Positions 3,618-56,383 are shown, numbered from the stretch's first letter. The stretch is 64,000 nucleotides of DNA from a candidate division Kazan bacterium RIFCSPHIGHO2_01_FULL_44_14 (GCA_001771185.1 METB01000001.1:375200-439199), one strand, 5' to 3'. Program-made: numbers and translations. The notes: a model not told the origin generated them from the letters alone.

Positions 3618-4229
3618 TTAGAAGATAGATGATTGAACCGAGAGGGTGGGGGACTTGGTTTCTGACAATTGGTCGATTTTGCCCAGTAAAATCGGGATTT
3701 TTTTGAAATCGGACATCAGGGTGGCTCGCAGTCGCGGGTCATAGAGTGCGGCGGCTGGATGATAAATTGGGAAAAAGATTTGATTACCCCTGCGTTTGGC
3801 CGTCCCGCGAATTTCGGAAATTTTTTCGGCCGGTAGAAACCAATGCAGTGCGTGACGGCCAAGTAAAACAATTAATTTTGGCTGAATCAAAGCCAATTCG
3901 CGAGTTAAAAACGATTTATGTTCCTCCACCTCTTCGGGCAGAGGGTCACGATTCTCGGGCGGACGGCATTTCACTACATTAGTGATATAAATATCTTCTC
4001 GCTGCCAACCGATCGTGGACAAGGCCTCGGCCAAAAGTTTCCCAGCCGAACCAACAAATGGATGACCGAGTTCATCTTCCATTTTGCCGGGGGCCTCACC
4101 GATAAACACAACCGGACTATTAATGTTGCCGTCGCCCGGAACAGCTTGTTGACACCCACCTCTTAGAGAACAATGATGGGATTTGATCTCTGCGACTAGC
4201 TTGGCAAATTGACTGCTTTTATCTGACAT
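3618..4229 (-). CDS. Uracil-DNA glycosylase, family 4
   Basis: VVFIGEAPGKMEDELGHPFVGSAGKLL motif (GEAPG...G.PF.G.AG) is typical of family-4 UDG. Confidence 0.8.
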   Translation of the reverse strand: MSDKSSQFAKLVAEIKSHHCSLRGGCQQAVPGDGNINSPVVFIGEAPGKMEDELGHPFVGSAGKLLAEALSTIGWQREDIYITNVVKCRPPENRDPLPEEVEEHKSFLTRELALIQPKLIVLLGRHALHWFLPAEKISEIRGTAKRRGNQIFFPIYHPAAALYDPRLRATLMSDFKKIPILLGKIDQLSETKSPTLSVQSSIF

Positions 4230-4473
4230 AAAACCAAATGAGTGCTACAACCACAGCTCCGAGTAGGAGCCACCCCCAGCCAGAGCCAGAACTGCTTTTG
4301 GGTTCATGGCGCTTGATTGACTGTGGGTTAACCACATAATCATTTTGGGGAGGTAAAAAGATTTGGCGGGCTTTCACTAACTTGGCTTGAGTCCGGCCAA
4401 GCTCCGTGGCACAACGCCCACAAAAAATAGTGGTGGGAGAATTATCGTGCCCGCAATTGTGGCAATGTGCCAT
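4219..4473 (-). CDS. Small zinc-ribbon protein with C-terminal TM helix
   Basis: CxxC...CxxC pairs (CHNCGH...CGRC) and a hydrophobic C-terminus. Confidence 0.4.
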   Translation of the reverse strand: MAHCHNCGHDNSPTTIFCGRCATELGRTQAKLVKARQIFLPPQNDYVVNPQSIKRHEPKSSSGSGWGWLLLGAVVVALIWFYVR

Positions 4474-4476
4474 AAA

Positions 4477-6579
4477 CTATTGCTTACTAGAGTCACCATC
4501 GAGAGTTGCTTTGTGGGAAAGATTGATTCGTCCGAGATTATCAATCTCTGTAACTACCACATCTAGCATATCACCCTCTTTGACCACATCGGTTACCCGA
4601 TCAATTCGACGGTCAGCCAATTGCGAAATATGGACAAGCCCTTCCCGACCAGGGAGAACTTCCACAAAAGCACCAAAGTCCATAATTCGAGTGACTCGGC
4701 CGTGGAATTTTTCGCCGGGTTTGATTTCGCGCATCATGTCGCGAATAGTTTGAGCGGCTTGCTCTCCCAATTTGGGGTCGCTAGAAGTAATGAAGGCGTT
4801 GCCGTCTTCTTCAATCGAGATATTGGTCACCCCCTTACCGCCAGCTCGATCAATAATCTCATTAATTACCCGCCCGCCCGGTCCAATCACTTCACCAATT
4901 CGGTCTTGTGGGACTTTGACCACAATCACCCGAGGCGCAAATGGGGATAGTTCAGGACGAGGAGCGGAAATAATCTTGCCCATTTCCGCCAACAAAAATT
5001 CGCGGGCTTGCTTGGCTTGGGCCAAGGCCTCGCTCATAATTTGCTTAGTAATCCCAGCTACTTTAATATCCATTTGAAGAGCCGTAATCCCATCCCGACT
5101 GCCAGCCACTTTAAAGTCCATATCGCCGTTGAAGTCCTCAATCCCGGCGATGTCAGTTAGAATTTTGTATTTGCCTTCACCAGTAACCAAGCCCATGGCG
5201 ATTCCAGCAACTGGTTTCTTAATTGGCACCCCAGCGTCCATCAAAGACAGGGTACTACCACAGACCGAAGCCATCGAACTGGAACCATTACTGGCCAAGA
5301 TTTCCGATACTACCCGGATGGTGTACGGGAAATCTTCGCGAGAGGGAATCATGGGCATCAATGCCCGTTCAGCTAAAGCCCCGTGACCAATTTCCCGTCT
5401 ACCAGTAGTCCGCATTGGTTTAACTTCACCGGTTGCATAGGGAGGAAAATTGTAGTGATGCATATACCGTTTAGTAGTGTCTAATTCCATCGTGTCCAAA
5501 ACCTGCTCGTCGTCTAGTGACCCTAAGGTAACCGTTGAGAGAGCTTGGGTTTCCCCTCGAGTGAATAGAGCCGAACCGTGAGGCCGTGGCAAAACGCCGA
5601 CCTCAATTGACAAGGGACGGATTTGATCCAACTTGCGGCCATCAGGACGCTTGTCGTGTTCTAAAATATTCCGACGGAATTCTTCGCTAACTACTTTTGA
5701 AAAGATGTCAGCCACCACTGCTTCGGGGTTTTCCTCACTAATGAATTCTTCCCAAATGGCCTGCCGCAAAGTATCCAACTTAGTATTGCGAACGATCTTT
5801 TCGGGATGATATAGGGCCTCTTCAAGTTGGCCACCCAGCCGAGTGGCGATATTGGTCTTAAGTTCTGCCGGAGTAGTTGTCACTTCATATTTATCATTCG
5901 CGACATTCAGACGCTTGACTAATTCATGCTGAATCTCGATGGCTGGCTGAAGTGATTTGTGCGCAAATTCGATTGCATCAACCATCTTGGCTTCAGATAC
6001 TTCCAAAGCCCCGGCCTCAACCATCATAATTGCATCTCTAGTCCCGGCTACCACTAAATCAAGCTGACTTTTGGCCCGCTGTTCGTAAGTTGGGTTGAGA
6101 ATAAATTTGTCATCAACTAGTCCAACCCGAACCCCAGCCACTGGACCATTGAAAGGCGCCCCGGCCTGCATCAACGCCGCCGAAGCAGCCGTAATTGATA
6201 ATACATCCGGATCATGAACTAGGTCGGCTGATAGAACTGTGATGACTACCTGGACATCATTATGGAAGCCCTTTGGGAAAAGGGGACGCAGAGGACGATC
6301 AATCAGCCGAGCTGACAAAATGGCATCCTCACTTGGACGGCCTTCTCGCTTGATAAACCGGCTACCCGAAATCTTGCCGGAAGCATAAAACCGCTCCTCA
6401 TAATCGATCATCAATGGGAAGAAATCAATATTCTCCCGCGGGGTTGCAGCTACCACAGCGGTAGCCAACACCACCGTGTCACCAATCCGCAAAGTAACTG
6501 ACCCATTGGCTAGTCCGGCTAGCCGACCAGTTTCCAACGTAAGCTTGGCTTCGCCAAGCTGGGTTTCAAATTTTTCCAT
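4477..6579 (-). CDS. pnp: Polynucleotide phosphorylase
   Basis: Two RNase PH domains followed by KH and S1 domains. Start chosen at MEKFETQ because it follows an AAGGAG Shine-Dalgarno; the track ORF extends further to 6630. Confidence 0.9.
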   Translation of the reverse strand: MEKFETQLGEAKLTLETGRLAGLANGSVTLRIGDTVVLATAVVAATPRENIDFFPLMIDYEERFYASGKISGSRFIKREGRPSEDAILSARLIDRPLRPLFPKGFHNDVQVVITVLSADLVHDPDVLSITAASAALMQAGAPFNGPVAGVRVGLVDDKFILNPTYEQRAKSQLDLVVAGTRDAIMMVEAGALEVSEAKMVDAIEFAHKSLQPAIEIQHELVKRLNVANDKYEVTTTPAELKTNIATRLGGQLEEALYHPEKIVRNTKLDTLRQAIWEEFISEENPEAVVADIFSKVVSEEFRRNILEHDKRPDGRKLDQIRPLSIEVGVLPRPHGSALFTRGETQALSTVTLGSLDDEQVLDTMELDTTKRYMHHYNFPPYATGEVKPMRTTGRREIGHGALAERALMPMIPSREDFPYTIRVVSEILASNGSSSMASVCGSTLSLMDAGVPIKKPVAGIAMGLVTGEGKYKILTDIAGIEDFNGDMDFKVAGSRDGITALQMDIKVAGITKQIMSEALAQAKQAREFLLAEMGKIISAPRPELSPFAPRVIVVKVPQDRIGEVIGPGGRVINEIIDRAGGKGVTNISIEEDGNAFITSSDPKLGEQAAQTIRDMMREIKPGEKFHGRVTRIMDFGAFVEVLPGREGLVHISQLADRRIDRVTDVVKEGDMLDVVVTEIDNLGRINLSHKATLDGDSSKQ

Positions 6580-26649: not shown

Positions 26650-26700
26650 CGGATGAGGATGGGGTTACTTCTGACAAAGTGGACAGAAGTGAGTGCCGCG
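26650..26700 (-). pseudogene. Divergent duplicate of the mutM 3' end (..GRGTHFCPLCQK stop plus about 10 nt)
   Basis: About 85% nucleotide identity to 27513..27560. Minus-strand translation ends GRGTHFCPLCQK*, against GRGTHYCPICQK* in the real mutM. Confidence 0.55.
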
Positions 26701-26782
26701 ACCACTGTTTGACAAAAATCCGCTCCGGGAGTATGTTTTTGGTGTCTGTAGTTTTTGAACATTACAATCAAGGAGTGGATAG

Positions 26783-27322
26783 ATGATGGACAAGCAAGGA
26801 ACATCAGGGGTTACGTGGTGGATAGGGGTACTAATGGGGGCGGTGTTGGGAGTGGCCGTTGAGGCCCTTGTCTGCATGGTGCCGGTGGTCAATGGACTCC
26901 CGGCCGAAGTCAAAGCCACTGGCGCAGCAGACTCGGCGTTTGTTGGTGCGTTGTTTGGTGGGTGGTTGATTACAATAGGGATTGTGATCCTCCCCTTATT
27001 GGGTTATATCCCCTACTCCCTGACATCTGCCATTCGCTACTACATCGGGATGACGCCGACCGAGCGCCGGGCCTGGCGACTTCGGAGGAAGCTAGTGCGC
27101 GTCGCAGCTCGGAATAAGCGGATATTGCGCGAGGCCCAAGCTCGGGTCGAGATCGCTCGGTTGGAGGAGCAAAAGATCGCTGAACACCAAAGGACGGTCG
27201 ATGAGTTGGTCACCTGTGACCAGGAGGAGTACAAAACGGCGATGCGGATAACTCGGGCCCTTGAGCCGTCGTTAGCGGCAACGCCATCTCCCAAGCGATC
27301 TTCCCAAGCACATTTTCAGTAA
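26783..27322 (+). CDS. Hypothetical membrane protein (2 TM helices plus charged coiled-coil tail)
   Basis: A rho-independent terminator follows it. It lies inside the segment bounded by the mutM 3'-end duplicates. Confidence 0.45.
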   Translation: MMDKQGTSGVTWWIGVLMGAVLGVAVEALVCMVPVVNGLPAEVKATGAADSAFVGALFGGWLITIGIVILPLLGYIPYSLTSAIRYYIGMTPTERRAWRLRRKLVRVAARNKRILREAQARVEIARLEEQKIAEHQRTVDELVTCDQEEYKTAMRITRALEPSLAATPSPKRSSQAHFQ

Positions 27323-27419: not shown

Positions 27420-27519
27420 ATATCCGCCGGGTGGCGGATGATTCTATTGAATCATTTCTAGCCTCTCGACTTCGCTCGAGGTCAATGTTGACAAATCGGC
27501 CCCTCGGCTACGCTCGGGG

Positions 27520-28491
27520 TTACTTCTGACAAATTGGGCAATAGTGAGTACCTCGTCCATTGAGGCGGATTTTTTTGATGGTGCTGCCACAGCGTTTGCG
27601 GCAAGGTAGGTCTTTGCGGTCATAAGCCACGAGGTAGTTTTGCATTTGCCCCATTGCGCCCTCGGGGGTGCGGTGGGTGTTGACGCTGGTGCCCATGTAT
27701 TTGATACCTTTTTCTAAAACCTTTTTAATAGCAGAAACGAGTTTGGTGGTGTCGGCTTTGGTGATGGATTTGCCGAGTCGGGTTGGTTTGATGCCGGCGT
27801 AAAAAAGGGCTTCATCGGAATAGATATTGCCAATGCCGGTGACGAGAGATTGGTCTAAAATGATGGTTTTGATGTTGCTCTTGGGGCGACGCTGGATGGC
27901 GGAGTATAAAAAGGCGGGAGTAAAGTTTTTGTCGAACGGCTCCATCCCAAGGTTGGAAAAGAATTTGTCATTTGGGACTTCGGCGGTGGGAGTGAGTTTG
28001 ACCCAGCCGAACCGGCGTTGGTCATTGAAATAGAGATTTCCTTTACTTAACTCAAACCAAACCCGAGTGTGGCGGGACGGCATGGTTTCGATAAAGTTTT
28101 TGTCGGGATGGCCGTAGTTGAGGCGTCCTTTTTCTAATTTGTCACCCCGAACTTGTTTCAGGATCTTGGTTTTAGATGCCGAAACGAGTTCGGCATGACG
28201 AGAGTGGGGGATATAAATCAACTGCCCCGTCATTTTTAGGTGAATCAATAAAGAAAGATCTGACCCGCCCGCACTTCGAGCTGTGGCGGGTTGTTTTGCC
28301 AACGAAACAATAATGCCCTTGCCTCGACGGGTGATGTTTTTAATACTTGCCCCGCGGAGACCTTGTCTCTTTGCGGGGGTGAATCCGAGAGTGCTTCTGG
28401 CCGAGAGAATTTTGACCTGTTTAATTTTCTGCCCGACGATGTGTCGGGAGAGGCCTCTTACTACCGTCTCTACCTCGGGTAACTCTGGCAT
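27520..28491 (-). CDS. mutM: Formamidopyrimidine-DNA glycosylase (Fpg/MutM) with ~50-aa internal insertion
   Basis: MPELPEVE N-terminus with catalytic Pro2/Glu3, H2TH region, and a C-terminal zinc finger CRKRCGSTIKKIRLNGRGTHYCPICQK. Confidence 0.8.
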   Translation of the reverse strand: MPELPEVETVVRGLSRHIVGQKIKQVKILSARSTLGFTPAKRQGLRGASIKNITRRGKGIIVSLAKQPATARSAGGSDLSLLIHLKMTGQLIYIPHSRHAELVSASKTKILKQVRGDKLEKGRLNYGHPDKNFIETMPSRHTRVWFELSKGNLYFNDQRRFGWVKLTPTAEVPNDKFFSNLGMEPFDKNFTPAFLYSAIQRRPKSNIKTIILDQSLVTGIGNIYSDEALFYAGIKPTRLGKSITKADTTKLVSAIKKVLEKGIKYMGTSVNTHRTPEGAMGQMQNYLVAYDRKDLPCRKRCGSTIKKIRLNGRGTHYCPICQK

Positions 28492-28859: not shown

Positions 28860-29447
28860 TTATTTATAGTGTTTGGGGTTGTGAGTAGCTCGGGTGTGTT
28901 GATCTGTGGCAGGGGGAGTATTAAGGCGGGTTACGATCGCCCAAAAGTGGGAATACATTTTTTCTTGTGCTTCATTGGTCAAAGTATTGTTGTGCAATAT
29001 GTCATTGCGCCACTGATTTAGATCCTTTAACTTAGTGACTAACGGGGTGTCTAACCTAAGCTCCTCACGAGCGAACTCGATCTTGCCATAGAAATTGGCA
29101 GTTTTTAGAAGGAGTTTTTTAATTTTTTTCTTAACACTTGAGTCGGAGGTTACATGGGAGCTTATATAATCGTCTAGCTCCCGCTCGCATACAAAGTGGT
29201 ATAGAATGAGTTCTGTTTTTTTGATTGCGATGTTAAACAATTCACCTCCACGAACCTGCTTTTTGTAGTGATTGTTAAATACTCGGGAGGCGGTAGCAGA
29301 AGTTCTTGTGGCTCTATTTGCCAACAGTTGTTTCAAAAGAGGAGCATCCTCTATATCGTTGGTTATTGCCATAAAAACCAATGGGTAGTAGAGCTTTTTA
29401 AGCTTTTCTCGTACTCCTTGGCTATTTGGAGTAATTGCACGGCTCAT
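28860..29447 (-). CDS. Hypothetical protein with possible HEPN-like RNxxxH motif
   Basis: C-terminal WRNDILHNN fits the R-x4-6-H pattern of HEPN RNases. The start codon overlaps the stop of the polA-fragment pseudo-ORF. Confidence 0.4.
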   Translation of the reverse strand: MSRAITPNSQGVREKLKKLYYPLVFMAITNDIEDAPLLKQLLANRATRTSATASRVFNNHYKKQVRGGELFNIAIKKTELILYHFVCERELDDYISSHVTSDSSVKKKIKKLLLKTANFYGKIEFAREELRLDTPLVTKLKDLNQWRNDILHNNTLTNEAQEKMYSHFWAIVTRLNTPPATDQHTRATHNPKHYK

Positions 29448-29448
29448 A

Positions 29449-29568
29449 TCTTTTTGGTTTCTCCCCAGCTTACTCCAGCTTCGACAACCACATGGATAGG
29501 GACATCGAGCTGATAGACATTTTCCATTTTGTCGCGGACGAGTTTGGTGATGGACTCTATCATTGATA
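29449..29568 (-). pseudogene. Divergent duplicate of the polA 3' end (39 codons)
   Basis: Minus-strand translation MIESITKLVRDKMENVYQLDVPIHVVVEAGVSWGETKKI* matches the PolA C-terminus KKVAKLVKDKMENVYQLDVPIHVDAEAGVNWGETKPA*. About 85% nucleotide identity to 30662..30780. Confidence 0.6.
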
Positions 29569-29826
29569 TCCTAATATTTCCAGAGTGGCCTTGACGGATG
29601 GATTAGTAGTGTTCAATAGCGTTACCCTGCCGGGGTATTTCTCGAATAACGGTCGCAGAAACTCATCCCCCCAAGAAGGAGCAAAGGCATTAACGCCGGC
29701 AAAATCAATTTCCAATGATTCGCCCGAGGAAATATCTGTAAGCTGTGATTGTAATGCCAAGGCGGCGTCTCGGCCAGCTGGTCGCGACATCAAGATGGCG
29801 CCAAATTTTTCTAATTTAATCAGCAT
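29560..29826 (-). CDS. STAS-like domain protein (DUF4325-like)
   Basis: 88 aa. ...LEIDFAGVNAFAPSWGDEFLRPLF resembles the DUF4325/STAS fold that is frequently encoded next to GHKL ATPases. Confidence 0.45.
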   Translation of the reverse strand: MLIKLEKFGAILMSRPAGRDAALALQSQLTDISSGESLEIDFAGVNAFAPSWGDEFLRPLFEKYPGRVTLLNTTNPSVKATLEILGYQ

Positions 29827-29843
29827 AACCCTAAGTCAAAGAA

Positions 29844-30590
29844 TTAGAAGTAGAGAACCGCTAGGCAGCCGCGCAAAAAGGGAGCCAGTTGAACCTTTAA
29901 ATCAGTATCATTCTGTCGTAGTTCAAGTTTCGCATCGCCGGATTGGAAAGTAAGACGCAGAGGATTTTCGGTAACCACTTTGCGGGTGAGTTTCAAGCCG
30001 TTGCCCCTCGCTTCCGGGTCGCGACCGGATATTCTTTCGGTGAAAGCGAGCCAAAGGGCGTCTTGGTGGGTTTGGAGATTAGGACGGACGCGCTGGAGGG
30101 TATGTAACACGCCTACGCCACGATCGGCCATCACTAAGTATCTATCGAAGATGCTGTAGTAGAAATAAATCCCGGGCAGGTCAGGCCAATTACCAATATT
30201 GTGGTCAAATGAATTGTTGCCAATCTCACCAGCAACAATAGTGATTAAGGGAGTTAAATAGCGTAACGTTGGCACTTTGGTTAGTTCGTAGGCCATTCGT
30301 TCTATGCGGGCAGAAAATACATCACGGGTGGCGCAGTACTGGTCTGGTGAGGGCACGATCCGATTCTCTGGCACGGTCGCCCAGTGGAGCGCGGAGTTCA
30401 CCAGGGGCGCAGTTCTTTTTAGGCGTTTGGCATAAATAGTGGCCTCGATATCTTCGGCAAGATAGTAGCGGTGCCCCGTGGCAGAGGCGCGATGGGACTT
30501 GAGTGCTCCGCTACTGTCCCAGCGTCTTAGGGTGTCCATCGAAACCCCGAGCCGTTTGGCCGCCTCGCCTATGTAGAGATGTTTAGTCAT
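29844..30590 (-). CDS. MerR/excisionase-type HTH fused to GHKL (HATPase_c) ATPase domain
   Basis: N-terminal IGEAAKRLGVSMDTLRRW helix-turn-helix. C-terminal half has an N-box-like EIGNNSFDH, DRGVGV (G1) and GRDPEARGNGLKL (G2). Confidence 0.5.
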   Translation of the reverse strand: MTKHLYIGEAAKRLGVSMDTLRRWDSSGALKSHRASATGHRYYLAEDIEATIYAKRLKRTAPLVNSALHWATVPENRIVPSPDQYCATRDVFSARIERMAYELTKVPTLRYLTPLITIVAGEIGNNSFDHNIGNWPDLPGIYFYYSIFDRYLVMADRGVGVLHTLQRVRPNLQTHQDALWLAFTERISGRDPEARGNGLKLTRKVVTENPLRLTFQSGDAKLELRQNDTDLKVQLAPFLRGCLAVLYF

Positions 30591-30661
30591 ACCTGTAATC
30601 TATGTATTTTACGACCTAATTATATCAAAATGCATAGATTGCGTCAATGGGCGAGTTGGGG

Positions 30662-32848
30662 CTAGGCAGGTTTGGTTTCGCCCCAGTTTACACCAGCTTC
30701 GGCATCGACATGGATGGGGACATCGAGCTGATAAACATTTTCCATTTTGTCCTTTACGAGTTTGGCGACCTTTTTGATGTCTTTGGTCGGGACTTCCAGC
30801 ACTAGTTCGTCGTGGACTTGGAGAAGCATTCGAGAACCTGGACTTGCTTTCGGCAGGGCTTTGGCGAGTTCAATCATGGCGACTTTCAGTAAGTCAGCGG
30901 CGGTGCCTTGGACGGGCATATTGATAGCGGCGCGGATGGAAGCGTTGCGGACGGCGGGGACTTGGGATTTAATTTCTGGGATGTAGCGACGACGGCCAAA
31001 CAAAGTTTCAACATAGCCATGCTGTTTAGCGAAGGCGGCGGTGTCGTCCATATATTGTTTGATTTCCGGATGAAGTTCGAAGTATTTATGAATATAGTTG
31101 GTGGCCTGGTGGATGGTCATATTAGTTCGAGCGGCCAGGCCGTAAGGGGAGACGCCGTAGATGATGCCGAAGTTAATCACCTTGGCATTTCGGCGCATGT
31201 CTTTGGTGACATCTTTAATTTTGACGCCGTTGACTTCAGCGGCGACGGTAGTGTGGATGTCCTCACCTTTATTGAAAGTCCGAATCATTCGCTTGTCGTG
31301 AGCGAGGGAGGCAATAACCCGCAGTTCGATTTGAGAATAATCAGCAGAGATTAACCGGAAACTCTTGGGGGCAATAAAGGCCTTGCGGATTTCGGCGCCC
31401 AAGTCAGAACGGATGGGAATGTTTTGAAGGTTGGGGTCTTTGGATGAAAGCCGTCCAGTGGAAGTGTCTTGGGCGTAAGTGGTGTGGACGCGGTTGTTTT
31501 TGTCGACTAGTTTAGGCAGGGTTTCGAGGTAGGTGTTCTTGAGTTTGGTGAGCTGACGATATTCTAAAATATGTTTGATAACAGGATGAGCGCGGTAGAT
31601 TTTTTCAAGTTCCGATACCCCGGTGGAATAGCCGGTCTTGCCAGTCAGTCGACGGCCAGGAGTTTTGGCGATATCTAAAGTTGGGAGTCCAAGGTCTTTG
31701 AATAAAAAAGTTGCCAGTTGAGCAGGGGAACTGATGTTAAATGGCTGGTCGGCGTATTTGTGGATATTCTTCTCGAGTTTTTCAATGCGAATGGAGATTT
31801 GGTCGTTTAGTTTTTTGAGCAGTTTAATGTCCAGCAAAATACCCGCTCGTTCCATTTTGCGGAGGATGGGGTCAAGTTGTTGGTCGAGGTCTTTCACGGT
31901 TTTTTTCTGGGGCCCTTTAGACCGACGGGCCTTATCAAAAAAAGATGCTTGTTTCCCAGCCGGTGGGGTTGTGAGGGTCCCGTTGGGAATTTTTTCATAG
32001 AGGGTCTTGAAGCCCATCCGCCGGAAGAATTCGGCAACTCGGAATTTATCGAAAGCGATGGCCTCGGCTTTGGCTAAATCAAGCTTGATAGGGATGGCGG
32101 TATGAATAGTGGCCAACCCCTGACTTTTGATGGCGTCCGGTTTACTCTTTTTTAATTTATCGGCGATGGTGGGAGAAATCTTCTCCAAGTTTTCATAGAT
32201 GGTTTCGATAGTCCCAAATTCTTGTAGAAGTTTGAGGGCAGTGACTTCACCAATGCCAGCCACCCCGGGGATGTTGTCAGAGGGGTCACCGCGGAGTCCT
32301 TTAAAATCGATAACTTGGTCGGGGCGGATGCCTTTGGTTTTTAAAACTTCTTCGGGGGTGTAGATGACGATATCGGAAAAACCTTTGCGCGGGGCATATA
32401 CAAAAATATGGTCGTTTACTAGTTGGAGGGCGTCCATATCACCGGTGGCAATGTAGGTATCGAGGGTGGCCGGGGCTTGCTTGGCCAATGTTCCAATAAT
32501 GTCATCCGCTTCAAAACCGTCTTTCAAAAAGACCGGGACATTGAAACTTTCGAGCAAGGCCTGAACTTCGGGGATTTGGTCGTAGAGTTCCTGGGGAGCT
32601 TTAATGCGAGTGGCCTTGTACTCAACATATTCTTTGTGGCGGAAAGTCGGGGCATTGGTATCAAAAGCCACTGCGATATAGTCGGGCTTGAGGCGGGTGT
32701 AAATGTTGATTAACATCACGGCAAAACCATAAATTGCCGTGGTGGGAGCGCCTGATGGGGAGGTGAGATTGGCACGTGAAAAAGCGTGGAAGGCACGGTG
32801 GACCAGGGCGTTGCCATCAATAAGGACTAGTTTTTTTCTAATAGTCAT
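30662..32848 (-). CDS. polA: DNA polymerase I (5'-3' exonuclease plus polymerase domains; no room for a 3'-5' exonuclease domain)
   Basis: N-terminal LVLIDGNALVHRAFHAF 5'-nuclease motif. C-terminal motif A (DYSQIELR), motif B (RRNAKVINFGIIYG) and motif C (QVHDEL). Only 728 aa. Confidence 0.9.
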   Translation of the reverse strand: MTIRKKLVLIDGNALVHRAFHAFSRANLTSPSGAPTTAIYGFAVMLINIYTRLKPDYIAVAFDTNAPTFRHKEYVEYKATRIKAPQELYDQIPEVQALLESFNVPVFLKDGFEADDIIGTLAKQAPATLDTYIATGDMDALQLVNDHIFVYAPRKGFSDIVIYTPEEVLKTKGIRPDQVIDFKGLRGDPSDNIPGVAGIGEVTALKLLQEFGTIETIYENLEKISPTIADKLKKSKPDAIKSQGLATIHTAIPIKLDLAKAEAIAFDKFRVAEFFRRMGFKTLYEKIPNGTLTTPPAGKQASFFDKARRSKGPQKKTVKDLDQQLDPILRKMERAGILLDIKLLKKLNDQISIRIEKLEKNIHKYADQPFNISSPAQLATFLFKDLGLPTLDIAKTPGRRLTGKTGYSTGVSELEKIYRAHPVIKHILEYRQLTKLKNTYLETLPKLVDKNNRVHTTYAQDTSTGRLSSKDPNLQNIPIRSDLGAEIRKAFIAPKSFRLISADYSQIELRVIASLAHDKRMIRTFNKGEDIHTTVAAEVNGVKIKDVTKDMRRNAKVINFGIIYGVSPYGLAARTNMTIHQATNYIHKYFELHPEIKQYMDDTAAFAKQHGYVETLFGRRRYIPEIKSQVPAVRNASIRAAINMPVQGTAADLLKVAMIELAKALPKASPGSRMLLQVHDELVLEVPTKDIKKVAKLVKDKMENVYQLDVPIHVDAEAGVNWGETKPA

Positions 32849-34523: not shown

Positions 34524-34630
34524 TGCTGTCATTCTGAACGTAGTGAAGAATCTAGTGATAGCGTTCTGCCACACAGCAGAACTAGATCCTTCGACTCTTC
34601 TGCTGTACAGCAGAATCGCTCAGGATGACA
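34524..34630. repeat. MITE-like ~107-bp element with TGTCATTCTGAACG / CGCTCAGGATGACA terminal IRs
   Basis: Over its internal sequence it is essentially the reverse complement of the element at 35984..36079. Its termini match the IRs of the GIY-YIG element at 40750..41112. Confidence 0.6.
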
Positions 34631-35974: not shown

Positions 35975-35983
35975 GGTTTGTTT

Positions 35984-36079
35984 TGTCATCCTGAGCGGAA
36001 ACGAAGGATCTAGTTCTGCTGTACAGCAGAACGCTATCGCTAGATTCTTCATCCCGGCAGGCCGGGATTCAGAATGACG
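35984..36079. repeat. MITE-like ~96-bp element, inverted copy of 34524..34630
   Basis: TGTCATCCTGAGCG terminus. Internal ...ctagttctgctgtacagcagaacgctatcgctagattcttca... is the reverse complement of element A. Confidence 0.6.
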
Positions 36080-40704: not shown

Positions 40705-40749
40705 GATTAGGATTTCGGTTTGTTTTTATATTGTTCCAAGGTGTCTTTT

Positions 40750-41112
40750 TTGTCATCCCGAGCGCAGTCGAGGGATCTGGCTATGAGTGCGAGACAATAC
40801 TATGTTTATATCTTGGCGAACCATAGTCGGGTTTTATATATTGGTGTAACCAATAATTTGACGCGACGGGTATACGAGCATAATCATGATTTAGTCCCGG
40901 GTTTTACACGCAAGTATAAAATTCATCGGTTGGTTTATCAGGAACATTGTGACGACGTTGAAAACGCTATTGCCAGAGAAAAACAGTTGAAAAATTGGAG
41001 ACGAGACAAGAAAGTAGCTTTAATTAACCGAATCAACCCAGAGTGGGAAGATTTGGTAGGTGTAGTAACGGGCTAGATCCCTCGATTCGCTCCGCTCACT
41101 CGGGATGACAAA
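40750..41112 (+). mobile_element. GIY-YIG element bounded by ~29-bp IRs TTGTCATCCCGAGCG..CGAGGGATCT
   Basis: The left IR (40750..40778) and right IR (41075..41112) are reverse complements. The termini match the MITE family at 34524 and 35984. Confidence 0.55.
40783..41076 (+). CDS. GIY-YIG nuclease family protein
   Basis: MSARQYYVYILANHSRVLYIGVTNNLTRRVYEHN matches the GIY-YIG core. Confidence 0.7.
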   Translation: MSARQYYVYILANHSRVLYIGVTNNLTRRVYEHNHDLVPGFTRKYKIHRLVYQEHCDDVENAIAREKQLKNWRRDKKVALINRINPEWEDLVGVVTG

Positions 41113-44659: not shown

Positions 44660-46450
44660 TTACTCCCCGGTTAGATTACGCAGTTCGGCTAATTGGGCAG
44701 GGTCAGAAGTGACGATTTTATCTTCCACATAACTAGCCACAACTTTAATGGCGGCATGGTTAGTGCCGGCAAAGAAAAGTCCTTCACCAACTTCGGACTC
44801 GAGCAGTAGGAACTTTTCACCTTGGGTCAAATTGAAGGTCTCGGCGACGACATCAATCGAAGCCGGGGACTGGCGGAAGAGCAGTTGAAGAGACGAGTTG
44901 GCTACCACTGCCTTACCATATTTGGAGCCCAAAAAGTCCTCTACATCCTGGGTAATAGTGGTGAGCCCGAGATAATATTTGCGAGCTCGTTTGGCGATAC
45001 TATATAAGAATTTAGCCGAGTCCTCGTATTGCATTAAAATCCAGGCCTCGTCGATGATGAGCAGACGCTTTTTAATATTGAAGCGGATTTTATTCCAAAT
45101 ATAATTCAACACCACATACATAGCGATGGGGCGAAGGGCGTCCTCCAAATCCCGAATATTGAAGACAACTAAACCGGTGTCTAAATCAAAATTGGTTGGT
45201 TTGTTGAAGATGCCAGCGAAAGTCCCGCGGGTATATTTGCTAAGTCGTTGAGACAAACTTTCGGCTCCCTGCATGTTGTCCAAAACATTTTGCAAGTCCT
45301 CCATCGTCGGCATTGGGTTTTTGTGGGTGGCGGTGTCGTTGGTGATATCTTTGAGGGCGTAGGTTTCATGTAAGGCCTTGTCCATCAAAGCATCTTCTTC
45401 GGGAGTCAAAGTCCCGACCAGCAAATTCATCAGGCCAAGCAAAGTGACGATGGCGGAGCGAAGGACTTTTTCGCCGTCAGCATCGACGCCCAGGTCGGGC
45501 AGGTCAAATGGATTAATCCGTTTGTCGCTGTTGAGCGAGATAGAAATAAATGAACCGCCAATGGCATTGGCCAGGGTCTCGTATTCATTCTCTGGATCGA
45601 TGACAATCGTGTCAGTTCCGAACATCGCACTGCGCAAAACCTCGAGTTTGACCGCATAGGACTTACCTCCACCGGACTTGGCGAAGACAGCCATGTTGGC
45701 ATTTTCTAAATCGAACCGGTCAAATAAAATCAGCGAATTGTTGTGCCGGTTGATACCATACAGAACACCTTTGCCGGTAGTCAGGTCAACCGAAGTGAAG
45801 GGGAAAGTGGTAGCAAGTGAGGAACTGGTCATGTTGCGGACAATATCTAACTCATCTAAGCCCAGTGGCAAAGAAGAATTAAAGCCCTGCTCCATTTGAA
45901 GTAAAGCATGCTTGGTGTAAACTAATTGGCCGCCCAGCGTGGTTTCAATGTGTTGGGTAATCGATTCCAACTCTTCGGGGGTCTTGGCGTAGATGGTGAA
46001 ATACAAACCATAATGGAAGAACCGTTCCATCCCGCGTTGCAGACGGTCACGGAGTTCCTCGGCATCTTGGTAGGCGACTTCCAGTTCGGGGTCGCGAACA
46101 GCGCCCTTTTCTTGGTTGATTCGAAGCGAGGACTCCATTTCGGCCACTTTCCGGCGGAGCGTATTCATAATGGCAGTACTGTCAATCGGGTAGATGTGCA
46201 TCGAAATGTCCAAATCAACATCATAGTTAATGACTGGGTTGAGCCAGTTGGTTTCAATATATTGAGGGTAGGTGAGCACAAACAGGGTTCGGACAAACCG
46301 GCCATTGAGCTCAATGGAATCATTTTTGATTTCCATAGAAGCCGGGGCAACCAAATCACGAATTGAAACTAGGCCAGCTTCAAATTGTTCGACGGCTTTG
46401 CGGGCGTCAGCTTCTTTTTGGGGCTTAGGTTTTCTTTTGAATAGAGCCAT
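44660..46450 (-). CDS. VirB4/TrbE-family type IV secretion ATPase
   Basis: P-loop FAKSGGGKSYAVK and the VirB4-typical Walker B LLIIDEAW. About 600 aa, comparable to the Gram-positive/CPR VirB4 class. Confidence 0.7.
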   Translation of the reverse strand: MALFKRKPKPQKEADARKAVEQFEAGLVSIRDLVAPASMEIKNDSIELNGRFVRTLFVLTYPQYIETNWLNPVINYDVDLDISMHIYPIDSTAIMNTLRRKVAEMESSLRINQEKGAVRDPELEVAYQDAEELRDRLQRGMERFFHYGLYFTIYAKTPEELESITQHIETTLGGQLVYTKHALLQMEQGFNSSLPLGLDELDIVRNMTSSSLATTFPFTSVDLTTGKGVLYGINRHNNSLILFDRFDLENANMAVFAKSGGGKSYAVKLEVLRSAMFGTDTIVIDPENEYETLANAIGGSFISISLNSDKRINPFDLPDLGVDADGEKVLRSAIVTLLGLMNLLVGTLTPEEDALMDKALHETYALKDITNDTATHKNPMPTMEDLQNVLDNMQGAESLSQRLSKYTRGTFAGIFNKPTNFDLDTGLVVFNIRDLEDALRPIAMYVVLNYIWNKIRFNIKKRLLIIDEAWILMQYEDSAKFLYSIAKRARKYYLGLTTITQDVEDFLGSKYGKAVVANSSLQLLFRQSPASIDVVAETFNLTQGEKFLLLESEVGEGLFFAGTNHAAIKVVASYVEDKIVTSDPAQLAELRNLTGE

Positions 46451-46532
46451 CCCGTTAAAAATTTTTACTAATGTATGTGTATTGCATCTTGGTGGTCTGT
46501 TGTTTGTGCCCGTTTTCTAGATTTTTAACGGG
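46451..46532 (-). promoter_or_regulatory. Conserved ~85-nt leader element with 12-bp IR (CCCGTTAAAAAT / ATTTTTAACGGG), copy 1
   Basis: About 85% identical to 47234..47320. Ends ...TAACGGG directly at the ATG of the VirB4 gene. Confidence 0.5.
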
Positions 46533-46540
46533 ACAGGTAG

Positions 46541-47233
46541 TTATTGTCCTGGGTTGGTATCCTTAATATGCTGGATGACTGAAACATCGACATTACTGAC
46601 CGAAAATAGTTTTTGTCTCCGGGCGGTATCAGTATTGTAGGTAGTATAGAACAGCTCAATCAATTCTTGAGTGTTGAGTTGGACATTATGCAACCCCAGC
46701 CCAGCCAGACCAGACGAGGCCAAGGAAGTCCGTTCCATCAACTTGGTTTTAACTTCCTCAAATCGGCCACCCAATGAAACCGGCCCACTCTTTTTACCAA
46801 AAAGTCCAGCCAGAAATCCGCCGGTAGGGAGTTCGACGCCGGTATCGTAGGGGATAACTAGATAGAAGGTTTTACTCATGATGTTAGCGACACCGATGAG
46901 TTCGCGGACGAAGTTGGTGTACTCGGTAGTTTGAGTTCGAAGCAGGTCATTGGTTTGTTGACGGCTAAGGGTGTCGAGTTGGGCCAAGTAATTGTCCAAA
47001 TCCAACATTCGGGACTGGACAACGATTTGGATTGGGAATCCTAGGCCGTTGAGAAAGGCCTGGTACTGCTGCATCATCGCTTCTTGTTCGTCCCTGGATT
47101 TGAGGTTGAAGTTGATGGCGTTGACCATCAATACAGTCCGAAATCCGCCGGTCTTTAAAATCACTATCCCATCGCGGACTTCCTTGATAGGTAGGTACTT
47201 TTGAGTACTGTTGGGCTGCTTTGATTTAGCCAT
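46541..47233 (-). CDS. VirB4 N-terminal-domain paralog (no ATPase domain)
   Basis: LPIKEVRDGIVILKTGGFRTVLMVNAINF... parallels the VirB4 N-terminus SIRDLVAPASMEIKNDSIELNGRFVRTLFVLTYP... The same leader element precedes it. Confidence 0.4.
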   Translation of the reverse strand: MAKSKQPNSTQKYLPIKEVRDGIVILKTGGFRTVLMVNAINFNLKSRDEQEAMMQQYQAFLNGLGFPIQIVVQSRMLDLDNYLAQLDTLSRQQTNDLLRTQTTEYTNFVRELIGVANIMSKTFYLVIPYDTGVELPTGGFLAGLFGKKSGPVSLGGRFEEVKTKLMERTSLASSGLAGLGLHNVQLNTQELIELFYTTYNTDTARRQKLFSVSNVDVSVIQHIKDTNPGQ

Positions 47234-47320
47234 CTCGTTAAAATTTTTTGTCAGTGTAAGTGTATTGCATCTTGGTGGTTTGTTAGTTTTGCCCGTTTTC
47301 TTGATTCTCTTGGGACAGGT
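47234..47320 (-). promoter_or_regulatory. Conserved ~85-nt leader element, copy 2 (IR degenerated)
   Basis: Shares ...gtgtattgcatcttggtgg.ttgtt.gtt.tgcccgttttct... with copy 1. Ends TAACGAG directly at the ATG. Confidence 0.5.
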
Positions 47321-55493: not shown

Positions 55494-55521
55494 CGTCAAT
55501 TTGGTGGATTGAAAATAAAAT

Positions 55522-55646
55522 GGGGCCCCCGAAATGTTCTAGTTCTGACGGATGGAGGAACGAGGATTTTGGGGAGAGGAAGAATGACGAGGCCTAAAAG
55601 CACCCCGGCAGGCCGGGATAGCGTGAAGCCGAGTCCATTCTGACGA
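55522..55646 (+). ncRNA. Conserved ~125-nt structured element directly upstream of tRNA-Ser(GCT), copy 1
   Basis: About 80% identical to 56247..56383. Contains a hairpin with compensatory substitutions (CCCCGGCaggGCCGGG here, CCCCGCCAT..ATGGCGGG in copy 2). Ends at the tRNA 5' end. Confidence 0.4.
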
Positions 55647-56205: not shown

Positions 56206-56246
56206 GGTACAATAGAGGCGTTAGGCAGTTTAATATTTTTGATAAA

Positions 56247-56383
56247 CGGGGTCCCCGAAATGCTCTAGTCCCGACGAATGGAGGAACGAGGATTTTGGGG
56301 AGAGGAGAAATGACGAGACCCAAAAGCACCCCGCCATCTGTAAACAATGGCGGGATAGTGTAAAGTTGAGTCCATTTGGACGA
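56247..56383 (+). ncRNA. Conserved structured element upstream of tRNA-Ser(TGA), copy 2
   Basis: See copy 1. Same 5' block GGGGNCCCCGAAATG.TCTAGT.C.GACG.ATGGAGGAACGAGGATTTTGGGGAGAGGA and same 3' block GTCCATT.GGACGAGG. Confidence 0.4.

Follow-up and report, generated by a model that had tools for sequence, protein, structure and literature searches.

How did a two-gene operon come to lie directly behind polA, between the true 3' end of that gene and a second, displaced copy of the same end, and what might such an operon do there? These questions are raised by a 64,000-nucleotide stretch of the genome of the candidate division Kazan bacterium RIFCSPHIGHO2_01_FULL_44_14 (GCA_001771185.1, METB01000001.1:375200-439199), which we refer to as a whole as the window; loci of relatives that were compared with the window are labeled L001 to L149. 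The element under study is a 1.1-kb self-contained operon, with its own promoter and operator and two genes, that is inserted at the last codons of polA. One gene encodes a protein that joins a helix-turn-helix (HTH) domain to a GHKL kinase-like domain (the HTH-kinase), and the other encodes a STAS-like protein of the DUF4325 family. Taking the evidence together, we consider it fairly probable that this cassette is a mobile operon of the polA end, that it entered by recombination without an integrase, and that its cargo is a partner-switching regulator; both function and mechanism are what we infer from the comparisons below. The features needed at the outset are as follows.

30662..32848, minus strand: polA, 728 aa, the insertion target, with 5'-3' exonuclease and family A polymerase domains.
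30671..30768, minus strand: repeat copy I, the polA-internal copy of a 98-nt direct repeat.
29844..30590, minus strand: HTH-kinase gene, 248 aa, with a MerR-type HTH (residues ~5-50), a long helix (45-72) and a GHKL/Bergerat-fold kinase-like domain (~85-248).
29560..29826, minus strand: DUF4325 gene, 88 aa, STAS-like, with an invariant PSWGDEFL motif (Ser51).
29444..29563, minus strand: polA-fragment open reading frame (ORF) of 39 codons, a copy of the polA C terminus.
29453..29550, minus strand: repeat copy F, the displaced polA 3'-end fragment, contained in the 39-codon ORF.

The two repeat copies (29453-29550 and 30671-30768) align without gaps over 98 nt at 87% identity with a spacing of 1218 nt, and a local BLAST of one against the other returns an E value of 1.3e-30, which bears out the claim of the original prediction that the end of polA recurs downstream. 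This pair is the top direct repeat family across the 64-kb window, and its sequence is not of low complexity, so that the alignment is not the spurious similarity that might have been feared. Exactly two genes, of 248 and 88 aa, lie between the copies. The upstream copy corresponds to the final ~100 nt of polA (Pfam DNA_pol_A, E 2e-147; 5_3_exonuc_N, E 6e-52; no 3'-5' exonuclease domain reported by Pfam) and is typical of the polA clade of the window, as judged by comparison with L004-L009, the polA products of which are 82-84% identical to that of the window. The downstream copy belongs to a 39-codon ORF that reads MIESITKLVRDKMENVYQLDVPIHVVVEAGVSWGETKKI followed by a stop and matches Pfam DNA_pol_A at profile positions 346-381 of 381 (E 7e-4, under the gathering score); its start overlaps the DUF4325 stop through ATGA, and its own stop overlaps the start of the next gene, again through ATGA. 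The same structure is present in independent assemblies (L003, 99.4% identical, and also the close L142 and L143) and is therefore not an assembly artefact. Among the junction types in the window, L001, L012, L029 and L142-L146, the polA fragment is an intact in-frame mini-ORF, with an ATG or GTG start that overlaps the DUF4325 stop, in five of six; by its placement, such a mini-ORF may keep the downstream gene translationally coupled.

To place this arrangement in the context of related genomes, two further genes are required.

28860..29447, minus strand: 195-aa gene, cargo of the polA/fpg interval that lies outside the cassette, with an Rx4H (RNDILH) motif.
27520..28491, minus strand: fpg/mutM, the conserved right-hand flank of the interval (Pfam Fapy_DNA_glyco, H2TH and zf-FPG).

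A scan with the PolA protein, restricted to one genome per species, yielded 57 loci. The nearest relatives by polA are Patescibacteria labeled Kazan or "Saccharibacteria" (polA 56-84% identical), and these share the gene order murE, SIMPL, polA, a variable region and fpg. In five species distributed over several sub-clades (L004, L007, L014, L018 and L020), polA adjoins fpg, with a spacing that ranges from 1 nt apart to an overlap of a few nt, and a one-base polA/fpg overlap is found at empty sites of distinct sub-clades. These empty sites confirm that the cassette was inserted after polA, as first proposed. Most other species carry 0.5-3 kb of unrelated genes between polA and fpg, and close relatives of the window harbor there genes with NYN, CYTH, Trypsin_2 and AIRS domains together with several unannotated ones; empty sites and varied cargo thus identify the polA/fpg junction as a hot spot of gene gain. 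Several of the genes inserted there begin within an overlap with the polA stop. The 195-aa gene is itself such cargo: it matches PHROG 5483 (E 3e-8, unknown function), its RNDILH motif is of the HEPN-like Rx4H form, and a match to DndB is sub-threshold only. L006 carries a partial relative of this gene at the same site, and strains L142-L146 lack it and have other genes in its place.

In about eight lineages the same cassette is present and has a polA-end fragment behind it; the two genes stand directly after polA in L001/L002, L012, L029, L141, L145, L149 and the species of the window itself. A shared position in several lineages, together with the highly conserved protein sequence of the family, could be explained if the cassette were ancestral at this locus, the repeat being a local tandem duplication, the empty sites the result of repeated losses and the similarity among cassettes the product of strong purifying selection. 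The pattern of divergence argues otherwise. In cassette-bearing lineages, PolA is 56-68% identical to that of the window and the HTH protein 47-93%, and the latter does not track the former (PolA versus HTH protein: L145, 62% and 93%; L001, 58% and 85%; L012, 66% and 73%; L149, 68% and 71%), whereas all six species closest to the window by polA (L004-L009, 82-84%) are without the cassette. DNA homology between the window and L001 extends over exactly 29567-30651 at 83% identity, compared to polA, of which just 594 nt can be aligned, at 69%. Synonymous divergence (dS) between these two loci is 0.65 for the HTH gene and 0.90 for the DUF4325 gene; third-codon positions of polA and murE agree at only ~35%, which is saturation, and dS is not computable. 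Cassette genes with a dS of 0.65-0.90 in genomes saturated at polA and murE imply that the cassette moves horizontally, and this contrast, the mismatch in identities and the absence from the closest species make vertical inheritance with losses very unlikely. The recurrence of the one-base polA/fpg overlap at empty sites of distinct sub-clades also speaks against an ancestral cassette, to which we accord almost no probability.

Exchange at the cassette is also visible at close range. Between murE and exactly 29539, strain L142 and the window share 99.3% identity; from there on, L142 has an L145-type fragment followed by different downstream genes. L142 and L143 belong to the same species as the window, and divergence sets in at the DUF4325 gene (91% aa identity). 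The switch of L142 and L143 at this point indicates that the cassette serves as a bridge of homology for recombination between lineages.

The junctions themselves retain a record of the two parents, for which two short segments are defined.

30662..30670, minus strand: imported polA tail CCTGCCTAG (Pro-Ala-stop), which replaces the ancestral tail now found after the fragment copy.
29539..29563, minus strand: imported fragment head ATGATAGAGTCCATCACCAAACTCG, 25 nt, remnant of an L145/L031-type polA end (MESAAKL).

On the upstream side, polA of the window ends in ACCAAA followed by CCTGCCTAG and then CCCCAACTCGCCCATTGAC, which is homologous to ACCAAG followed by CCCGTCTAG and CCCCCCAATCCGCCCATTGAC in L145; the tail and the sequence past the stop are also homologous to CCTATCTAA in L029. 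From the homology to L145, we conclude that the last two codons of polA, the stop and the post-stop sequence arrived with the cassette. The tail AAGATATGA of L005, a species without the cassette, now terminates the fragment in the window, and the tail of copy F, AAAAAGATATGA, is the native polA tail of L005. On the downstream side, the 25-nt head ATGATAGAGTCCATCACCAAACTCG has its homologue in ATGACGGAGTCCGCCGCCAAACTCG, with which fragments of the L145 type begin and which is in turn polA sequence of L145 encoding MESAAKL. At a shared CCAAACTCG, the fragment in the window switches to polA sequence of its own clade, eight codons further upstream. Read from the alignment, this switch appears to be a microhomology junction, and such a junction accounts for a fragment of 39 rather than 27-30 codons. 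The polA-derived parts that arrived with the cassette are thus the last two polA codons with the stop and the 25-nt fragment head only, and the interior of the repeat matches the resident clade.

Other lineages present the same anatomy with different boundaries. The fragment that follows the DUF4325 gene resembles the polA end of its own genome in L001, L012, L029 and L145 (for example, MENIYPLDVPLTVNIESGPSWG in L001, MENIYKLDVPIIANVSAGPSWG in L012 and ESAAKLDAPIEAK in L145). The two copies diverge at TGGGG in L001 and at ACCAAA in both L029 and the window; in L012 they do so immediately past the stop. Depending on the lineage, the fragment begins at one of three or four polA positions. Short motifs shared at the junctions are ACCAAA, CCAAACTCG, ATGGA and TGGGG. 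A single reciprocal crossover at TGGGG was considered as the source of the window arrangement and was dropped after differences were polarized against L004-L009 and L142 and L145 had been found.

What kind of recombination could have generated these junctions? Direct repeats of a gene 3' end around foreign DNA are the textbook scar of site-specific integration, a site reused by many lineages is in keeping with it, and the polA tail and the sequence past its stop accompany the cassette much as one arm of an attP site would; on this basis, the original prediction recognized a classic case of integration at a gene end. The element would then be decayed or non-autonomous, with the polA 3' end as its attachment (att) site and a recombinase that acts in trans or has been lost. 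No recombinase domain is detected by Pfam, NCBIfam or PHROGs in three window proteins (the cassette pair and the 195-aa protein), which give HTH matches only, nor by precomputed Pfam assignments for the genes called near the cassette in L001, L002 and L141-L149 (L001, L002 and L142 were examined with long flanks, and L012 and L029 are listed as ORFs only). The accompanying statement that no integrase remains is accordingly upheld by the domain scans. Crossover and boundary positions vary by lineage with no fixed crossover core, a comparison of the cassette ends of 14 loci with repeats uncovers neither conserved termini nor inverted repeats, and each repeat for the most part follows the resident polA clade. 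Elsewhere, as detailed below, members of the family are flanked by unrelated duplications (of ruvC, of the end of a HAD gene with its terminator, and of an exonuclease 5' end) that share no termini, and since the ends of other genes are duplicated too, the repeat does not qualify as a dedicated att site. Recombination at homology or microhomology better accommodates boundaries that vary and repeats that follow the resident clade. Site-specific integration is therefore probably the wrong description of this locus, and we regard it as unlikely, if clearly the strongest of the alternatives to the route of entry that we favor.

We infer from these junction sequences that insertion proceeded by integrase-free ends-in recombination, homologous or microhomology-mediated. 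A donor segment composed of the last polA codons and stop, the cassette and the first codons of a polA-end fragment would recombine with the 3' end of a recipient polA, with its two short arms facing each other on the target in what is called ends-in, or insertion-type, geometry; a circle that had been excised through the repeats and integrated in the Campbell manner would amount to the same. The gap between the arms would be filled from the recipient, so that ~100 nt of the polA end would be duplicated on both sides and polA would remain intact. The crossover points would be ACCAAA on the left and CCAAACTCG on the right. A cassette flanked in this way could enter any relative with a similar polA end and could be lost again by recombination between the repeats.

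Several observations weigh against this route and are considered together. Copies I and F are 86.7% identical, little different from copy I and the polA end of L006 (87.8%), and they differ by multi-base codon changes; such high divergence means that gap repair from a single recipient requires either an old event or later allelic exchange at polA. Natural transformation delivers single-stranded DNA, and to our knowledge, ends-in integration has not been demonstrated in these organisms. Finally, a recombinase acting in trans is possible and compatible with the sequence.

How general is the cassette, and is its association with duplicated gene ends peculiar to polA? The HTH-kinase matches at least 4970 clusters at 90% identity, all named ones of which are Patescibacteria, and a full search with a hidden Markov model identifies 131 representatives at E<1e-30, including ~190-aa forms that lack the HTH. 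The expectation that the pairing of a GHKL ATPase with DUF4325 recurs as an uncharacterized module is well founded: among 80 metagenome loci, the DUF4325 gene directly follows the HTH-kinase gene in 78/78 that extend far enough, and a literature search for DUF4325 returns passing mentions only. Searches on partner switching with STAS and MerR, and on mobile elements in Patescibacteria, gave nothing relevant. None of the 80 loci adjoins polA, and no conserved gene neighborhood is apparent, the largest cluster among 122 neighboring ORFs from 64 loci having 3 members. In 10 of these 64 loci, significant direct repeats (E<1e-5) bracket the pair, compared to 0/192 mismatched pairs and 2/105 same-locus shifted pairs used as controls. 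The duplicated sequences include 125 nt of the ruvC 3' end in L117 (where a downstream 60-aa ORF matches Pfam RuvC, E 4e-8), the end and terminator of a HAD gene in L071, the first 36 nt of an exonuclease gene in L137, and a terminator with a promoter in L104. L065 contains two copies of the cassette, or at least of the DUF4325 gene, within 4.7 kb (2-226 and 3829-4721), from which it follows that a genome can hold more than one copy. Viral collections contribute a single IMG/VR locus, and GenBank phages match the HTH only. A 170-aa ORF in L001 that looked PIN-like by eye has no Pfam match, and we make no claim for it.

What, then, does the cassette encode? The N-terminal region of the 248-aa protein is matched by Pfam MerR (42 bits against a cutoff of 28.2; E 8e-11) and MerR_1 (38.9 bits against 21.6), and the predicted model places a long helix at 45-72 after the HTH. 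The N, G1 and G2 ATP-binding boxes of GHKL proteins are invariant in the family. HATPase models of Pfam and NCBIfam give no match to this protein, and a phmmer search of the PDB returns MerR-family matches that cover the HTH only, so that of the annotation as an HTH-GHKL ATPase, the HTH is secured by profile, while the GHKL assignment is a prediction from conserved motifs and modeled structure only. The C-terminal domain adopts in the model a kinase-like GHKL fold rather than a nuclease or recombinase fold, and the known structures closest to the pair are those of anti-sigma kinases and of their antagonists rather than of MORC-like ATPases. NCBIfam also reports a match to the IS607 TnpA, confined to residues 9-58 and scoring 24 bits against a cutoff of 110; the serine-recombinase catalytic domain of an IS607-type transposase is absent, the C-terminal domain being GHKL. 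Antagonists of the SpoIIAA type have a conserved phospho-acceptor Ser/Thr where the helix after strand 3 begins. In the DUF4325 protein, Ser51 of the invariant PSWGDEFL begins a helix (50-63) and is compared with the phospho-serine of SpoIIAA by topology only. The DUF4325 profile yields just chance matches to an oomycete effector among PDB sequences, and hhalign produced no alignment with a SpoIIAA sequence.

The control region of the operon is equally compact.

30619..30647, minus strand: cassette promoter, TTGACG, 17-nt spacer and TATAAT, with TG before the -10 box.
30597..30640: inverted operator pair, ATGCATAGATT and ATACATAGATT, which brackets the -10 box and is the presumed HTH binding site.

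The promoter matches 11 of 12 consensus positions and is conserved in L001, L012 and L145. The operator motif has two matches only in the 64-kb window, both at 30597-30640. In 54 family loci, one to four copies of TGCATAGAT lie within ~130 nt upstream of the HTH gene, often as direct repeats ~10 or 20 nt apart; outside these upstream regions, 140 loci are almost devoid of the motif. The sequences point to no output other than autoregulation.

A small GHKL kinase with N, G1 and G2 boxes, encoded next to a STAS-fold antagonist, is the hallmark of SpoIIAB/RsbW-type systems, and both elements are present here as predicted folds. By fold and architecture, the HTH-kinase would be SpoIIAB/RsbW-like and the DUF4325 protein SpoIIAA-like, and the pair would constitute a new architectural variant of partner-switching regulators in which the kinase is fused to a DNA-binding domain. 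A dimer of the HTH-kinase would bind the TGCATAGAT repeats in its own promoter; the STAS-like partner would bind the kinase domain in an ATP-dependent manner and may be phosphorylated at or near Ser51. The partner switch would then toggle a DNA-bound regulator, as SpoIIAA does SpoIIAB, with the fused DNA-binding domain, rather than a sequestered sigma factor, as the output. On the other side of the ledger, the pair has no sequence-level similarity to STAS or HATPase models, neither a cognate sigma factor nor a PP2C phosphatase lies beside it in the window (where the flanks are polA and the polA fragment) or in the 64 family loci, and the only target that the sequence suggests is the promoter of the pair itself.

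The lack of conserved neighbors invites a different view of the same operon. An apparently autoregulated two-gene unit with a private operator, transferred horizontally and enriched for flanking repeats (10/64 against 0/192 and 2/105), might be a selfish addiction module of the toxin-antitoxin kind or a self-promoting one, and in the extreme version, prompted by the resemblance of its HTH to those of the IS607 transposase and of excisionases, the HTH-GHKL protein would aid its own insertion. This HTH similarity is of a generic MerR/Xis type, no known toxin or antitoxin family is matched, and the kinase-like C-terminal fold described above is not that of a nuclease or recombinase. Unrelated cargo of the hot spot also has flanking duplications, so the repeats are not specific to the cassette. 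We find this explanation decidedly doubtful. In a combined form, the pair would be a recombinase-less selfish cassette that is autoregulated, uses pieces of host genes as homology arms and is possibly addiction-like or able to modulate recombination; this form too is doubtful, and were it true, flanking duplication would mark a general, undescribed route of gene gain in the reduced genomes of the candidate phyla radiation (CPR).

A role in anti-phage defense, with the hot spot as a defense island, can be weighed in the same manner. GHKL ATPases occur in some defense systems, and the NYN and CYTH genes of relatives, the Rx4H-motif gene of the window and the otherwise varied cargo would suit such an island. 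PADLOC-DB v2 reports for the HTH protein the 60-position HTH profile mad1 (E 8.5e-10) and nothing for DUF4325 or the 195-aa protein; the nearest structures, as noted, point to anti-sigma kinases rather than MORC-like ATPases, the pair lacks an effector domain, and its neighbors vary across the 64 loci. We give a defense function very little credence. Where a defense or regulatory role was initially thought plausible, a regulatory partner switch is thus favored, and defense is unsupported, by virtue of a PADLOC match at the HTH alone and near-absence from viral collections.

Gene-end duplications and other short repeats are found elsewhere in the window and in its relatives. At fpg, 47 nt that span the last codons, the stop and 5 nt thereafter (27516-27562) are repeated at 83% identity 855 nt downstream (26661-26707), and these copies flank a 0.8-kb insert with one unannotated 179-aa ORF (26783..27322, plus strand). 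Short duplications of the fpg start flank or lie within other cargo in L005, L009, L013 and L022 (weaker in L009 and L022, E ~1e-4). Where genes are tightly packed in these genomes, duplication of the target end seems to be a general mark of gene gain; we speculate that it may persist because it preserves both the end of the upstream gene and the translation start of the downstream one. A 79-nt direct repeat (46445-46523 and 47228-47306, 85%) spans the start codon, together with the region upstream of it, in each of two successive minus-strand genes, encoding a 596-aa ATPase-like protein and a 230-aa protein, and the 230-aa gene is thus bracketed by duplicated 5' regions. A 93-nt direct repeat (55518-55610 and 56244-56336, 88%) brackets tRNA-Ser(gct) and a 153-aa gene within a cluster of three tRNA-Ser genes and one tRNA-Arg gene (54465, 55417, 55647 and 56384), where tRNA is the only family that Rfam detects. 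The first 50 nt of the annotated murE ORF (36002-36051, minus strand) recur as an inverted copy at 92% identity just past the murE 3' end (34544-34593, plus strand), and an overlapping 43-nt motif (GTCATCC.GAGCG...GGATC; 35976-36018) recurs 4.8 kb away at 40743-40785; this murE-start repeat is probably a dispersed short repeat rather than coding sequence.

CPR bacteria, or Patescibacteria, have tiny genomes with few recognizable regulators and few recognizable mobile elements. Against this background, the locus draws attention to a very common (at least 4970 clusters) and unstudied regulatory pair that would be a DNA-binding version of the anti-sigma kinase/antagonist switch. It also offers a worked example, complete with empty sites, donors and junctions, of how a cassette may cross species boundaries without an integrase, with the duplicated ends of conserved genes as its portable homology, and it establishes the polA/fpg junction as a hot spot of gene gain. 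The putative regulator (operator, kinase and STAS partner) and the proposed route of transfer give concrete, testable predictions.

Comparison with known systems defines what would be new here. Relative to SpoIIAB-SpoIIAA and RsbW-RsbV, the module is horizontally mobile and comes without a sigma factor or PP2C phosphatase; its kinase carries a fused MerR-type DNA-binding domain with a long helix, and its STAS-like member, at 88-97 aa, is smaller. With MerR regulators, the HTH-kinase shares an N-terminal MerR HTH followed by a long helix, as in MerR dimers, and operator repeats in and around its own promoter. MerR-activated promoters typically have a 19-20 nt spacer; here, it measures 17 nt, and the inverted motifs, rather than falling inside it, lie on either side of the -10 box. 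A GHKL kinase-like domain takes the place of the effector-binding domain. As in islands integrated at gene 3' ends, where attL and attR flank the insert, gene-end repeats surround the cassette, the insert provides polA with its final codons and stop, relatives have empty sites and the site is reused. Unlike such islands, the cassette is an insert of just 1.1 kb for which no gene of an integrase or excisionase is found, and its repeat is long (54-104 nt), matches the resident clade and has variable microhomology boundaries. Finally, ends-in recombination and Campbell integration are known as laboratory outcomes and for plasmids (insertion-duplication with linearized or circular nonreplicating DNA), and they predict the arrangement observed here of target, insert and target, in which the recipient is the template for the gap and the donor contributes no more than the outermost ends of the arms; what differs at the polA locus is that this would be a natural route between species for a chromosomal cassette, by way of arms of ~10-25 nt and imperfect homology.

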